Virus record (IMG/VR): IMGVR_UViG_3300029288_007089
Location: 1 to 64,000 of that record
Length of the DNA: 64,000 bases
Strand: one strand, 5' to 3'
Source: a virus
Taxonomy: Duplodnaviria; Caudoviricetes
Shown: positions 16,475-55,394 of the stretch, piece after piece
Layout of the letters: every line of letters starts with the position of its first letter
Numbering within the stretch: the first letter of the stretch is position 1
Notes under the pieces: model-generated
Database searches by the model: none
Seen by the model: the letters and a program-made list of their open reading frames with translations, nothing else
What the model was told of the DNA's origin: nothing
Translations under genes and position numbers: made by a program

Positions 16475-17631
16475 GCCGCTTTCCACCCTTCCAGCGCCCG
16501 CTCCGCAATCACGCGCAGCACGGGCATGGCGTATTTGCCGATCACGTAGTCGATGTCATAGTCGCGCGCGCCCTCAATCGCGCGCCGCCGGCGCTCCGGG
16601 TCGCCGCGCTCCAAATACGCCGCCTCCAGCGTCTCAACGATTGACGCAATACTGGGGCCAATCCAGAAGGCGTTTTGTTCGCTCCACTCCGGATCGCCCT
16701 CCACGAGCCAGCCGCTAAAGTTCAATTCTTTCTGCGCGCCGAAGTCGGTAGTGATGACGGGGCAGCCGGCGCGCTGGAATTCGAGCACCGGCAGGCCAAA
16801 GCCCTCACCCCGGCTCGGCGCAATGAGCACATCGCTCGCCTGCGCCAGCGTCGCCAGTTCGCGCGCCGGGATGCCGGTGCGGTACCGGTACTGGTCGGCA
16901 ATGCGCACGCGCTGTGGGTCGAGGCCGAGCGTCTTGATGATAACCGGGATGTTGACGCCGCCGAATACCGACGTGAGCAGGTTGCCCGTCTCAGACGTGT
17001 GCAGGTACAACATGGCGTCGGGGTACGTCTGCGCGAACATCTGCCACGCCACCAGCAACTCAGGGATGCCCTTCCTGCTTGGCACGCTGTCGTTGACGCC
17101 CACGAAGGACACGAGAAACACATCATCGGCCAGTCCCAGCGCCTTGCGTGCGGCGCGGCGGTCGCCGGGCTGCCACACCGCCGGGTCAACGCCGTGCGGC
17201 AGGTAGTAGCTCTCATGGCCGGCTACGCGCAGTTGCCGCTCGCCCCAACGTGTAAGCGCAATCGGCGCGCGGCACGCCGCCAGCGCGTTTGTCACCCGTT
17301 CCGGCACGGGCTGGCGATCAATGGGTGTGATGGGATACCAGGGCATGTGGCGCATGATTTCGGGGTTCAGTCCCCAGGCGTCGATGAGAGAGATTGCCGC
17401 GTCGGCGCGGAAGTGCGCCGCGTGCCCGTGAATAATGTCGCTGCCCAGTGGGTCGAGCGCCGGCGGGAGCACCTTGACGCCTTCGACCAGCGCCGGCAGG
17501 CTGCCTGCGCCGATGCCCAAATTGAACACGGCGACCTCGTGCCCCAGGCGCTTCAGGCGCGGCACGAAAAGGCGCGACTGGATGCTATAGCCGGACTGCG
17601 AGGTGAAGTTAGCCGCCCAGAGTATGCGCAA
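16471..17631 (-). CDS. Glycosyltransferase family 4
   Basis: HGVD, RKGIPELLVAW, DVLIAPSRGEGFGLPVLEFQRAGCPVITT. Confidence 0.92.
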   Translation of the reverse strand: MRILWAANFTSQSGYSIQSRLFVPRLKRLGHEVAVFNLGIGAGSLPALVEGVKVLPPALDPLGSDIIHGHAAHFRADAAISLIDAWGLNPEIMRHMPWYPITPIDRQPVPERVTNALAACRAPIALTRWGERQLRVAGHESYYLPHGVDPAVWQPGDRRAARKALGLADDVFLVSFVGVNDSVPSRKGIPELLVAWQMFAQTYPDAMLYLHTSETGNLLTSVFGGVNIPVIIKTLGLDPQRVRIADQYRYRTGIPARELATLAQASDVLIAPSRGEGFGLPVLEFQRAGCPVITTDFGAQKELNFSGWLVEGDPEWSEQNAFWIGPSIASIVETLEAAYLERGDPERRRRAIEGARDYDIDYVIGKYAMPVLRVIAERALEGWKAA

Positions 17632-17953
17632 TTGTGTCGCCTCCCAACGTCCAACCGCATTCGGGGCACCGGATGATGCCAGGGTTGTTGTGTTCGTCTA
17701 CGTTCGTGAGCGCCGCGCCGCAACGCGGGCAGGTATCGGAGATGGATAAATCGCCGGCTAGTGAACTTACCAAGCGCGGCGGCGACGGTACCCACGGCGG
17801 TGGCGGCATCATCCGTCCCTCCCGCCACGCCTCGCACGCCTTGACGACAATGTAGGACACGCTGCGGTCGTCACGCGCGGCTTCCGCTTCCAGCCACGCC
17901 AGCAGGTCGTCGGGGAAGGATATGCCTCTTGCGGTCGTTGTGCGTTTGCTCAT
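17609..17953 (-). CDS. Ribbon-helix-helix protein with C-terminal zinc ribbon
   Basis: RGISFPDDLLAWLEAEAARDDRSVSYIV; CPRC...CPEC. Confidence 0.7.
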   Translation of the reverse strand: MSKRTTTARGISFPDDLLAWLEAEAARDDRSVSYIVVKACEAWREGRMMPPPPWVPSPPRLVSSLAGDLSISDTCPRCGAALTNVDEHNNPGIIRCPECGWTLGGDTIAHTLGG

Positions 17954-18056
17954 TATAGACAAAGCGCCCACTGCACTTACTGCCGGCGGGCGCTCACGGG
18001 CGCACAGATGTTCAAGTCACAGTGTAGCACGGAATTGCAGCGCGTGCAAGTCACAG

Positions 18057-18232
18057 GTCACGGTGCGCTATTCTGAGATTCGCCCACTGCAACTGCAGCA
18101 CAGAACCACACCTCGGCGGGATGTCACAGTGCGCTATTCTGAGATTCGCCCACTGCAACTTTTGCGCAACATCCTCAGGCAGAAACACAGTGCAGGTCAC
18201 AGTGCGCTATTCTGAGATTCGCCCACTGCAAC
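18057..18232 (-). CRISPR. CRISPR array 1: three 37-nt repeats GTTGCAGTGGGCGAATCTCAGAATAGCGCACTGTGAC, spacers of 36 and 29 nt
   Basis: Repeats at 18196-18232, 18123-18159 and 18057-18093 (last has one mismatch); directly downstream of the RuvC nuclease and scaffold. Confidence 0.9.
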
Positions 18233-18380
18233 CCCAGTTGCAGTGCCGTGCAAAGCACGGAGTTCGGTCCAAAGCCGCCGCTAGTGGCGCGTTTTGACGC
18301 GCCAGGAACGCCGGGCGTCCCGTCTGGTCTTACGCGCGGCCCCAGGCCCAGGATGTGTGACTGCATCCTGTTCTCAAACC
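18233..18380 (-). ncRNA. Omega/tracr-like scaffold RNA fused to the first repeat
   Basis: Anti-repeat CACTGCAAC (plus 18237-18245) joined by TGGG to the repeat start GTTGCAGTG; stems covary with the second copy at 55211-55357. Confidence 0.8.
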
Positions 18381-37816: not shown

Positions 37817-38831
37817 GTTGTGCCCTCTTTTCGGCTAGCCAGTCGTCAGTCTCAACCGCGAATGCGTCCTTCGCCAGCACCCACAACAACTCTGCGTTCT
37901 GTAGCGCGTAGTGGCGCTGCGGCGAGGCGCGCGCCTCGCCGGTGGTGAACAGCCGCGCGAAGAGCGGCCACTGCGCCCGCGCCAGCTCGGACAGGTAATG
38001 CGTCGGCGGCTCGTAGGGCTGCCCGTCGCAGAGCGTGCGCGCGTGCACCGCCCGCGCGCAGTTGACCAGTTCGGCCCAGGCGTCGGGCGAGAGTTGGGCG
38101 AGCGGCGCGTATTTGTTGGGTGGTGGCACGCGCGACTCGACCTGCCGGATAAAGTGCCCCGTCATGGCGTCGTCGGGCACCTTACCGGCGGCATTGTCCG
38201 CAACCGTCTTAAGCCACCAGCCCATCAAGAACCAGTTAGGGTATTCGGTAGCGACGATGTCTTGCGCCTTCGTACCCCAGTCGAGACCGAAGCCGCGCAT
38301 GAGGAGAATCTTCTGATAGTCCGAATTCGACGACGACGGTGCGCGCGCGTCGCCATTTGCGCGCTCCGCGCCTATGGTGTCGTTATTATGGGTTGGTTCA
38401 GATGGGATAGTTCTTGTGACACCGGTGACACTAGGGGTAGTGTCATGGGTGACACTAGGGGTAGTGTCATGGGTGACACTAGTGTCATGGGTGTCACGCT
38501 TTCGAGGCTCATTCCATACCGTATAGACATTGGAATCGTAACGGCGCGTAGCAGGATCATAGCGGCGCTCGATGTCAACGTAGCCCGCGCATTCTAGCTC
38601 CTTGATGAGCCGAATGATCGTGCGCCGGCTAAGCCCTATATCTTTGGCGAGGCGTGTCATGCCTGGCCAGGCTGCCTGTTCTGAGTTCATGTATCCGCAA
38701 ATATTGGCATACAAAAGCCGTGCGCCTTGTGAGAGTGTCGTATCCCTAATGCACGCGACAGATACCGACGCCTTCCAGGGATCACCGCTCTTCAGTGTGC
38801 CATGTTCTGCGACCTCATCCGTGTTGCTCAT
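37788..38831 (-). CDS. Phage replication initiator (N-terminal winged HTH)
   Basis: LSQGARLLYANI...AWPGMTRLAKDIGLSRRTIIRLIKELECAGYV; internal iterons; precedes dnaB. Confidence 0.8.
   Translation of the reverse strand: MSNTDEVAEHGTLKSGDPWKASVSVACIRDTTLSQGARLLYANICGYMNSEQAAWPGMTRLAKDIGLSRRTIIRLIKELECAGYVDIERRYDPATRRYDSNVYTVWNEPRKRDTHDTSVTHDTTPSVTHDTTPSVTGVTRTIPSEPTHNNDTIGAERANGDARAPSSSNSDYQKILLMRGFGLDWGTKAQDIVATEYPNWFLMGWWLKTVADNAAGKVPDDAMTGHFIRQVESRVPPPNKYAPLAQLSPDAWAELVNCARAVHARTLCDGQPYEPPTHYLSELARAQWPLFARLFTTGEARASPQRHYALQNAELLWVLAKDAFAVETDDWLAEKRAQHEPAERETS
38416..38497. repeat. Palindromic iteron-like tandem repeats (probable origin)
   Basis: gtgacactaggggtagtgtcatgg at 38425-38448 and 38449-38472, plus a shortened copy at 38473-38490; each holds tgacact/agtgtca inverted arms. 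Confidence 0.75.
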
Positions 38832-49920: not shown

Positions 49921-50420
49921 CCGCTATTGACGAATTACTTGACCACATCCTGACCGTTGCGCACGAGCAAGCTATTGAGCTTGACGACGCAGACCAGAAA
50001 GCACGTGTGGAGGTTTGGCGAGACATTCAGGCCGGTAAGCTGAACGCAGAAGACTTCGAAGATGAGAGTATGGGATACGACGCCGCGCTTACTCGCGACG
50101 CTCACGAAGCTACCGTCGGCGAGGTGGTGGTGGCGGTTGCGCGTGAGACGGAGTGCAGGAACGACCTGTGTTGGCTGCTCACCCTCTTCCACGCGCGTCG
50201 CGACGCCACCGGCTGGCGCGTGGTCATGCGCGAATACCCGCCGTCGCCGGAAGACTGCGAGCGCATTGGTGAATTGGCGGCACGGTATGGTGTTGCTGTG
50301 AGTGTGGCGCAGAACGAAGCGCTAGAGCCGGAGCCGGTGCCCGACGCGCCGGCGAGGGACGCGGAGATGCCAGAGAACCCGCTGGACTGGCTGAGCGAGT
50401 TGGCGAGAAAGGACGATTGA
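49917..50420 (+). CDS. Hypothetical protein
   Basis: 167-aa acidic ORF, ATGA overlap. Confidence 0.6.
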   Translation: MTAIDELLDHILTVAHEQAIELDDADQKARVEVWRDIQAGKLNAEDFEDESMGYDAALTRDAHEATVGEVVVAVARETECRNDLCWLLTLFHARRDATGWRVVMREYPPSPEDCERIGELAARYGVAVSVAQNEALEPEPVPDAPARDAEMPENPLDWLSELARKDD

Positions 50421-50444
50421 CTATTCAAAGATACCTGCTATAAT
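50417..50444 (+). promoter_or_regulatory. Strong promoter TTGACT-16-TATAAT with extended -10 TG
   Basis: 50417-50422 and 50439-50444. Confidence 0.8.
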
Positions 50445-50449
50445 AATGA

Positions 50450-50556
50450 TTGCTAAGGGACAACGGAGCGATTTTTTGTTCGCGGTAACAAGCCGCTCTT
50501 TGGCGCAAATCGTTCCGTCCCTTAGCAAGACGCGAACAGCCAGAGGGCGGCTTGTT
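50450..50556 (+). ncRNA. Interlocked three-helix 5' leader RNA upstream of the tnpB remnant
   Basis: Pairings 50450-74/50507-28 (22 bp), 50477-84/50531-38 (8 bp), 50487-504/50539-56 (18 bp). Confidence 0.65.
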
Positions 50557-50572
50557 GTTTAGGAAAATAATC

Positions 50573-50941
50573 ATGCTGGTGCGCAGCTACAAATACCGAC
50601 TGTATCCTACACCAACGCAAGTGCGCCGCTTGTTCGCAATGTTGCGCCTGTCGCGCCTACTCTACAACCACATGCTGGGCTATCGAGAGGAGGAGCACTC
50701 CTCATGGGCGCTAAGCCGCGTAAGACTTCATGATTTCATGAAGCAACGGTTTGCCCGAAAGCTCCGTTATTATGCGGAGAGTGCTATGGCGAACGCTAAG
50801 CTGTGTAAGACGCCGCAATTGCGCGGCGCGGTGGTTAGTTCGCAAATCTCTGCCAATCCGGAGCAGCTGGAGGTCTGCGACGCGACACACTCTGCCGGCA
50901 TCGAAGAAACGCCATATCTGGCGGAGACGGCGGCGCGATGA
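50573..50941 (+). pseudogene. tnpB: Internally deleted IS605-type tnpB (only the N-terminal HTH is recognisable)
   Basis: MLVRSYKYRLYPTPTQVRRL...SRLLYNHML; no RuvC motifs; another frame gives a C-terminus-like RGGALLMGAKPRKTS* ending at 50733. Confidence 0.75.
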
Positions 50942-50956
50942 CCGCCACCGGTGGCT

Positions 50957-51213
50957 GTTGCAACCGTCAACCTCCGGAGGTGGAGGGTGCTAGCACTATG
51001 GACGGTGGCTGGTCTGGGATGGCCGGCGTTGTTGCAACCGTCAACCTCCGGAGGTGGAGGGTGCTAGAGCCGTCAGACTTGCCGAGACGCGCCAAGACGA
51101 ACTTGTTGCAACCGTCAACCTCCGGAGGTGGAGGGTGCTAGAATGCCGCACCTCCGGCCACAGATACGCGGTAAGCGTTGCAACCGTCAACCTCCGGAGG
51201 TGGAGGGTGCTAG
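50957..51213 (+). CRISPR. CRISPR array 2: four identical 37-nt repeats GTTGCAACCGTCAACCTCCGGAGGTGGAGGGTGCTAG, spacers of 37, 37 and 35 nt
   Basis: Repeats at 50957-50993, 51031-51067, 51105-51141 and 51177-51213; orientation inferred from the upstream promoter. Confidence 0.93.
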
Positions 51214-51229
51214 ACACAAAACAGGAGGC

Positions 51230-51547
51230 ATGATGAACGCTCAGAATATTGCCAAGCAGTTGATGAAACACTGCGCTAATGAACCGACGGCAGAGGTTCA
51301 CTGGTACGCCGGCGGGACAGTTGACTACCGCTTCTGGACCGGAGAATATATGCTCACCGTATCGGTGTTCACCAATGAGGAGGACCGCAACGAGGCGGGT
51401 AGGTGGCCGAGCATGGGCGCCGTTGATGGCAGCCGGGGCCTGATAACCGACTACGAAGGTCCCGAATACAGCACCGACGCTGGGGCCGTGCGCGCGGCGA
51501 TTGCATTGATGGAAGAGATGCGACAGGACTATGGGGGTGAGGCATGA
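51230..51547 (+). CDS. Hypothetical protein
   Basis: CAGGAGG RBS, 105 aa. Confidence 0.65.
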   Translation: MMNAQNIAKQLMKHCANEPTAEVHWYAGGTVDYRFWTGEYMLTVSVFTNEEDRNEAGRWPSMGAVDGSRGLITDYEGPEYSTDAGAVRAAIALMEEMRQDYGGEA

Positions 51548-55036: not shown

Positions 55037-55210
55037 ATGAACGACGAAGAACTGCGCGCCGCCGGCGCGTGCGGCTATGCCGGCCATTCTGACGACAACG
55101 CGGCGGTGAACATTGCCCGCCGCGCGCTGTACCGCAAAGCGGATTGGCCCGGTGGCTATCGGGAGTTCCATCGTAGTTTCGCAAACGTCAGTACCTTTAC
55201 AACAGAATGA
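55037..55210 (+). pseudogene. tnpB: Chimeric ORF: 5' end of a phage gene (MNDEELRA) fused to the last ~48 codons of the 18-kb nuclease homolog
   Basis: GACGYAGHSDDNAAVNIARRALYRKADWPGGYREFHRSFANVSTFTTE vs ...KADWEGGYREFHRSFANVSTLTTK; homology starts at ~55063. Confidence 0.9.
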
Positions 55211-55394
55211 GGTTTGAGAACAGGGTGCAGTCACACACCCTGGGCCTGGGGCTGCGCGTAAGACCAGAGGGACGCCCGGCGTTCCTGGCGCGTCGAAACG
55301 CGCCACTAGCGGCGGCTTTGGGCTGAATCCCACGCTTTGCGTGGCACCGCAACGCAGGTTGCGGTGGGCGAATCTCAGAATAGGCCATTGTGAC
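55211..55394 (+). ncRNA. Second copy of the scaffold RNA ending in a single repeat variant
   Basis: Colinear with the reverse complement of 18196-18380; repeat GTTGCGGTGGGCGAATCTCAGAATAGGCCATTGTGAC at 55358-55394 (4 differences). Confidence 0.85.

Follow-up and report, generated by a model that had tools for sequence, protein, structure and literature searches.

The truncated tnpB gene P0002 and the four-repeat CRISPR-like array that follows it on a tailed-phage genome (array 2; Table 1) are read here, with moderate confidence, as the remnant of a phage cassette of TnpB-like nuclease and mini-array, which was recently disabled, is still transcribed and no longer has a cognate nuclease. The window, namely the whole stretch of 64,000 nucleotides that was analyzed, corresponds to bases 1-64000 of a 72,653-bp IMG/VR record, which is classed as a provirus and encodes a portal protein, a large terminase, a head protein, a DnaB-type helicase and a replication initiator. 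The large terminase is ~50% identical to terminases from phages of Betaproteobacteria, and no tRNA genes were found in the phage record. The ancestral cassette would have been arranged in the order promoter, leader, compact nuclease gene and mini-array, from which about 300 nuclease codons, covering the rest of the WED/REC region, the three RuvC motifs and the zinc finger, would have been lost. Left behind would be a strong promoter, a structured leader, a stub of 122 codons and an intact array of four repeats, with the array most likely still transcribed at the head of an operon continuing into the downstream phage genes. Since the 72.6-kb record encodes no cognate nuclease, the array should be unable to direct cleavage alone, and the loss of the nuclease was probably recent.

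Table 1. Features of the stub locus, of other CRISPR-related loci on the phage and of related cassettes on metagenome contigs (window coordinates unless a contig is named).
Feature	Position	Strand	Description
Sigma-70-type promoter	50417-50444	+	TTGACT-16 nt-TATAAT, TG before the -10 hexamer; 11/12 consensus positions
Structured 5' leader of the predicted stub/array transcript	50450-50556	+	Interleaved inverted repeats
ORF P0002	50573-50941	+	122 codons plus stop; remnant of a TnpB-like nuclease gene
TnpB-homologous part	50579-50785	+	P0002 residues 3-70
Non-homologous 3' part of the ORF and 15-nt gap	50786-50956	+	Weak repeat-complementary stretch at 50847-50884; palindrome GCCACCGGTGGC at 50944-50955
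CRISPR-like mini-array (array 2)	50957-51213	+	4 repeats, 3 spacers
Repeats 1-4	50957-50993, 51031-51067, 51105-51141, 51177-51213	+	Exact copies of GTTGCAACCGTCAACCTCCGGAGGTGGAGGGTGCTAG
Spacers 1-3	50994-51030, 51068-51104, 51142-51176	+	37, 37 and 35 nt
AGGAGG ribosome-binding site and ATG of the next phage gene	51223-51235	+	104 aa, called at 51233; 9-19 nt past the last repeat
Cas12f-like P0001 gene	18381-19982	-	Scaffold with anti-repeat CACTGCAAC
Array 1	18054-18237		Three repeats; P0001 system
Type IV-B-like operon	58906-62833	+	csf1, possible cas11, csf2, csf3, AAA_33 P-loop kinase, cysH-like PAPS reductase
P0004 cassette	L006:1927-3530		Gene then array, same strand
P0007 cassette	L022:3001-4520		50% identical, among the nearest relatives of P0004
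P0006 cassette	L023:772-2079		58% identical, among the nearest relatives of P0004

The 37-nt repeat GTTGCAACCGTCAACCTCCGGAGGTGGAGGGTGCTAG occurs in exactly four copies, all on the + strand and identical over all 37 nt including the non-palindromic flanks. Shuffled sequence gave 0 matches in 100 shuffles, and no extra copy was found in the whole record with up to 14 mismatches allowed. The spacers resemble neither one another nor any other part of the genome (each is unique in the record), and the period of 74/74/72 nt is not a multiple of 3, hence this is not a coding repeat. The locus thereby has the make-up of a generic CRISPR array, namely at least three direct repeats, nearly identical and 23-55 nt long, with unique spacers of about equal length between them. 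The earlier note on this DNA, made from the sequence alone, had described four identical repeats of 37 nt with a 12-bp palindromic core, preceded by a GCCACC/GGTGGC hairpin, and all of this was borne out: the core is ACCTCCGGAGGT, around which the repeat is predicted to fold into an internal hairpin of -13.2 kcal/mol, and the preceding hairpin is the palindrome GCCACCGGTGGC in the 15-nt gap between the end of ORF P0002 and the first repeat. Direct reading of both repeats likewise agrees with the note that array 2 shares only the repeat length and the GTTGCA start with array 1.

It has to be considered whether the repeats are protein-binding or structural sites rather than CRISPR repeats, or whether an ordinary IS200/IS605 tnpB fragment came to lie beside them by coincidence, and we assign a low probability to this pair of readings. 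The spacers number only three, no known family includes the repeat, and a dimeric protein could bind the 12-bp palindromic cores and the similar palindrome at 50944; however, all 37 nt are identical in 4/4 copies, non-palindromic flanks included, the spacer lengths are CRISPR-like, and the likely origin iterons of this phage are found elsewhere. These are tandem 24-nt iterons, GGTGACACTAGGGGTAGTGTCATG, at window 38416-38497 within the replication-initiator gene, which likely mark the phage origin. Coincidental adjacency is a matter of the lineage of the stub and is taken up below.

An AGGA ribosome-binding site precedes the ATG of P0002 by 8 nt, and residues 3-42 of the protein match Pfam HTH_OrfB_IS605 (E 5e-11) as well as NCBIfam TnpB models. 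BLASTP against the best relative, P0004, and a profile of 121 TnpB-family proteins agree on an extent of homology from residue 3 to ~70, so that the claim of an N-terminal TnpB remnant was correct, but its proposed size of ~40 codons was too small, with the ORF open for 122 codons. Codons 71-122 have coding-like GC1/2/3 in frame. A single-sequence fold of P0002 predicts two long helices (residues 14-39 and 45-75; mean pLDDT 60, i.e., low confidence), as would be expected of a TnpB N-terminus. Because the profile, run with filters off over the six frames of 50401-51300, and the Pfam models matched only the N-terminus, with no match at the locus to OrfB_IS605 (PF01385) or TNB (PF07282) and no TnpB sequence farther on, the stub has lost the remainder of WED/REC together with the zinc finger and all three RuvC motifs. 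The same negative results (profile in six frames, TNB and OrfB_IS605) leave the suggestion that ~15 C-terminal tnpB codons persist unsupported.

Two candidates for the missing half were rejected. BLASTP aligned residues 53-105 with residues 294-352 of a TnpB (E 0.006), with a suggestive HD..F..L.Y.AESA pattern, and this alignment fails a correction for ~120 queries and is invisible to the profile. A TNB-like match at 17627-17740 was ruled out, as it belongs to a ribbon-helix-helix plus zinc-ribbon protein. That protein, of 120 aa (window 17609-17971, - strand), is encoded directly downstream of array 1, with the ribbon-helix-helix at its N-terminus and the zinc ribbon at its C-terminus, and could be a regulator of the Cas12f-like locus. 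Besides the unrelated P0001, no second TnpB/Cas12 gene was found in the record, and there is no TnpA gene near the stub. No effector with RuvC D-E-D and a zinc-finger/TNB domain adjoins the array, and an IS200/IS605 TnpB transposon is not present either, the HTH part being all that remains and occurring as a single copy in the record.

The lineage of the stub links it to arrays. The only significant TnpB match to the stub among 1.84 billion representative proteins (HMMER) is P0004, a protein of 395 aa (E 2.7e-4), and word-index searches at similar and longer lengths returned the stub itself only. P0004 lies within a very large ordinary TnpB family (>4,000 matches at E 1e-10 or better), and its close relatives P0005-P0007 complete a group of TnpB-like proteins of 375-407 aa. 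In a tree of 90 N-terminal columns, with comparators taken from the hit list of P0004 itself, P0002 groups with P0004-P0007 (SH-like support 0.987), and the exact five-member split of P0002 plus P0004-P0007 was recovered in 98/100 bootstraps (FastTree). Long-branch attraction behind the grouping of P0002 is possible; a ML..SR..YN motif is common to the five proteins and absent from the other 116 TnpBs. P0004, P0006 and P0007 are intact, with all three Pfam TnpB domains, and in each of them (3/3 with readable downstream DNA) a mini CRISPR array follows, starting 78-109 nt past the stop codon and built of 28-29-nt hairpin repeats and ~32-nt spacers. All three loci are on short metagenome contigs, two of which (L006 and L022) carry phage-type neighbors, namely helicase, primase, DnaB and MazG, and the third of which (L023) is a 2-kb contig that ends inside the second repeat. 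Two more distant TnpBs at 45% identity, one of them with a TnpA gene, have no array.

On this short alignment, the stub thus falls into an array-linked effector lineage, and there is good support, drawn from sequence comparison, for its descent from such array-linked TnpBs rather than from a random IS fragment. The note had foreseen a second TnpB-CRISPR pairing on this phage, independent of array 1, and had named array-less full-length relatives as an outcome that would speak against it; both points came out in favor of the pairing, since the stub has no similarity to P0001 and groups with P0004-P0007, and since the full-length relatives with readable downstream DNA do carry arrays. A further check that it proposed, for full-length tnpB relatives with the array-2 repeat, found none, the repeats of the relatives being 28-29 nt long and unrelated. 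The cassettes of P0004, P0006 and P0007 resemble the stub locus in having gene and then mini-array on one strand, but their genes are intact and share a CGTAGCCCGC motif at the 3' gene end, whereas the stub locus has a truncated gene, an unrelated 37-nt repeat and no CGTAGCCCGC motif. A model of the 3' gene end, scaffold and first repeat of the relatives also gave no match in 50401-51300, and we infer the ancestral pairing of the stub gene with array 2 from position and lineage, not from a conserved RNA.

A direct duplication of ~70 bp, which includes a promoter-like TTGACA...TATACT, flanks the P0004 cassette at L006:1820-1895 and L006:3510-3590, and this suggests that the cassette may have been inserted or duplicated as a unit. 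Such duplications show that these units move about, which would favor a coincidental placement of a tnpB fragment beside array 2, but the stub groups with the array-linked clade and not with ordinary TnpBs. The P0004-P0007-type clade is itself a candidate for an ultra-compact CRISPR-associated nuclease lineage, and array-linked TnpB-like proteins of only 375-407 aa may interest those seeking very small programmable nucleases.

Expression signals upstream of the stub appear to be in place. The sigma-70-type promoter overlaps the end of the upstream gene, beginning within its final codons, and neither strand of 50300-51400 has another promoter-like site. The leader spans the interval from ~6 nt past the -10 hexamer to just short of the stub's ribosome-binding site, and its inverted repeats (50450-50475 with 50505-50530, and 50487-50504 with 50539-50556) cannot all form at once; the fold of ~120 nt has an MFE of -53.3 kcal/mol (z = -4.1). 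No Rfam family matches the leader and nothing alike was found elsewhere in the record or among the scaffolds of the relatives, and from its predicted folding it could be an attenuator or switch for the stub/array transcript. As the near-consensus promoter lies upstream and no + strand terminator is predicted between the array and the next gene, transcription of the array most likely continues, on an RNA in which it follows the stub and precedes downstream phage genes.

The same features would also suit a use of the array in trans, in which the array RNA is processed and loaded by an effector encoded elsewhere, so that the nuclease gene became dispensable and was then lost; the effector could come from the host (a CRISPR-Cas system), from a co-infecting relative with an intact homologous cassette, or from the phage itself (its type IV-B Csf complex). 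We consider this rather unlikely. The identical repeats, the strong promoter and the lack of a terminator speak for it, as does a repeat that forms its own hairpin, which is expected of crRNAs recognized without a tracrRNA, and virus-borne Cas-less mini-arrays that exploit host machinery are known (PMC6858448); on the other hand, no Cas6 family is among the Pfam matches of the 25 genes around the locus. The Cas12f-like P0001 of the phage is an unlikely user, because the array-2 repeat has UGCUAG at its 3' end, which does not allow the GUCACA:UGUGAC pairing seen in the P0001 scaffold, and only 6 bp of the anti-repeat duplex would be left. In the P0001 system itself, the anti-repeat CACTGCAAC of the scaffold pairs with the start of the array-1 repeat.

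A scaffold of ~220 nt before array 2, proposed in the earlier note, found no support, as the region resembles neither the other scaffolds of the phage nor those of the relatives. A genome-wide duplex scan for an array-2 anti-repeat gave no outlier, and the same scan picked out the copy at 55 kb for the repeat of array 1. The pairing of the stretches 50846-50885 and 50926-50965 with the array-2 repeat ranks in the top 0.2-0.4% of the genome background, a marginal result once ~20 independent windows are allowed for. The copy at 55 kb is a partial paralog of the P0001 locus (window 55038-55386, + strand; ~90% identical), consisting of the last ~45 codons, ~140 nt of scaffold and one unit like the array-1 repeat, and three of its helices, the anti-repeat/repeat duplex among them, differ through compensatory changes (CACTGCAAC/GTTGCAGTG versus CACCGCAAC/GTTGCGGTG in that duplex). 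A third, shortened copy of the Cas12f scaffold lies beyond the window (G000:C1:68430-68600), with its own promoter-like site and without the anti-repeat/repeat duplex or an array.

Searches for the repeat and for spacer targets, both put forward as checks in the earlier note, yielded neither a relative nor a convincing target, and the array-2 repeat was seen in none of the collections searched. The exact repeat is absent from the viral contigs, and its 26-nt 3' part from one genome each of 185,579 species (exact patterns). A two-core array pattern gave 13 matches in genomes and viral contigs, 0 of them with the flanks of the repeat. A degenerate repeat pattern had no match in metagenomes, and Rfam (gathering and E-value thresholds), including CRISPR-DR, holds no family for the repeat. 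Array 2 therefore belongs to no described repeat family and does not recur in the other genomes searched. For the spacers, nothing below E 0.8 was found in phage and plasmid records, and there was no match in viral contigs; together with the own genome and the metagenome, these searches give no convincing target, and the spacers do not match related viruses or mobile elements as those of a virus-borne mini-array using host Cas proteins would. Both results weigh against use in trans: the repeat or a core-bearing array is in 0 genomes (185,579 species) and 0 viral or metagenome contigs, and no convincing spacer target is at hand.

One partial match was found in the metagenome. The first 23 nt of spacer 3 (51142-51164) match L021:1728-1750 and then diverge; the match lies in a chromosomal gene (PSCyt1 domain), on a contig with planctomycete-type chromosomal genes. 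It was judged to be chance and rejected as a target, as about one hit is estimated for a GC-rich 21-mer at the size of the collection. The start of spacer 3 also resembles the reverse complement of the 3' half of the repeat (11/16 positions).

A partial match of this kind is, however, what would be looked for if the array acted as an RNA decoy or regulator, with repeat hairpins that mimic host or rival CRISPR repeats and sequester Cas proteins, or with spacers that work as crRNA-like regulators through partial matches. Phage repeat mimics, solitary or as mini-arrays, inhibit CRISPR-Cas (PMC10651486), phage crRNA-like regulators are known (bioRxiv 10.1101/2024.10.29.618823), the promoter predicts high expression, and spacer 3 shows 23 contiguous nt of a bacterial chromosomal gene followed by divergence. 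Yet there is no known system with this repeat to mimic, the 23-nt match is about what chance would give for a GC-rich 21-mer (roughly one hit by estimate), and canonical, even spacer lengths would be unnecessary in a decoy, hence we hold this reading to be improbable.

The third candidate for use in trans is encoded on the phage itself, 7.3 kb downstream of array 2 and on the same strand. Its operon has the type IV-B gene set of csf1, csf2, csf3 and a cysH-like gene, with the AAA_33 kinase gene between csf3 and the cysH-like gene. Csf1 (E 1e-12), Csf2 (E 7e-20) and Csf3 (E 3e-10) all score below the curated NCBIfam cut-offs, PAPS_reduct matches at E 4e-15, and cas11 was not identified by a model in the operon. 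Neither arrays nor Cas6 occur in type IV-B loci, for which the uptake of crRNAs from other sources (PMC7038947), or else their uptake or neutralization (PMC7038947; PMC7937560), has been proposed, and an archaeal virus, Fuxivirus, pairs type IV-B with a mini-array (PMC10848311). This background, together with the location of the operon on the same phage and strand as array 2, makes it conceivable, if speculative, that the Csf complex is the user of array 2. In contrast, the operon is 7.3 kb off, and among the isolates of the phage collection a related Csf2 is encoded by Skermania phage SPI1 only, where no array lies within 20 kb. The specific proposal that the array was kept after nuclease loss because it feeds the array-less, Cas6-less Csf complex of its own phage is accordingly very improbable; if true, a borrowed TnpB-type array would be the crRNA source and the first defined guide supply for type IV-B.

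The preferred reading thus remains that of a recently disabled cassette remnant, and how recent the loss was bears on why the array is so well kept. Identical repeats and an undamaged stub fit recent loss or selection alike, and the two are indistinguishable as no close relative of the phage was found. Over 14 kb, the ENA contig L020 from a second assembly shows 100% identity and so reveals no population variation. Searches of viral contigs with the stub, with each of its two flanking genes and with P0004 turned up no related locus, and consequently there is no syntenic phage for comparison. The identity of the repeats, the near-consensus promoter and the coding-like codons 71-122 could mean that the unit is kept by selection. 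As the 72,653-bp record is rated 65% complete (CheckV), a partner gene could lie outside it. If the array RNA is processed and loaded, the locus would be a natural case of guide RNAs that outlive their effector and are used by another.

Compared with known systems, array 2 is like the Cas-less viral mini-arrays (PMC6858448) and RNA anti-CRISPRs (PMC10651486) in being a short viral array without a functional cas gene. The repeats of those elements match host arrays and the mini-array spacers match related viruses, whereas neither a host repeat nor a target was found for array 2. The csf1-csf2-csf3-cysH-like operon described for type IV-B (PMC7038947; PMC7937560) and Fuxivirus (PMC10848311) is present on this phage too, but 7.3 kb separate it from the array, whose physical link is to the TnpB stub. 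Proteins of TnpB size and IS605 ancestry (TranC/type V-U) have been linked to CRISPR arrays several times independently (PMC13565253), and like them the stub is IS605-derived and tied to an array; TranC proteins, however, are active as nucleases and use an omega-RNA that is split into tracrRNA and crRNA, while the stub locus is without a nuclease or a demonstrable tracrRNA. Because it has no RuvC effector, the locus falls outside type V as that type is defined, and going by its gene content it would best be filed as a decayed member of that kind.

The layout may be likened to Cas12r-CRISPR of the Thermus Lalka phages, in which a TnpB-like nuclease and a short array form a working system (bioRxiv 10.64898/2026.04.20.719267). 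There, a phage gene for a TnpB-lineage nuclease stands directly before a short array, without adaptation genes and with high expression, and the crRNA works without a tracrRNA, which by analogy would suit the hairpin-bearing repeat of array 2. Cas12r has a functional nuclease and degenerate repeats of 29 bp, whereas the present locus has perfectly conserved repeats of 37 nt and 122 codons without the catalytic part. Besides the stub locus, the phage encodes an intact Cas12f-like system, of which there are extra scaffold copies, together with a type IV-B operon. Phage cassettes of TnpB and mini-array increasingly look like type V CRISPR systems that were born repeatedly and independently, and the stub locus would represent the other end of that life cycle, with the nuclease gone and the promoter and array still pristine.
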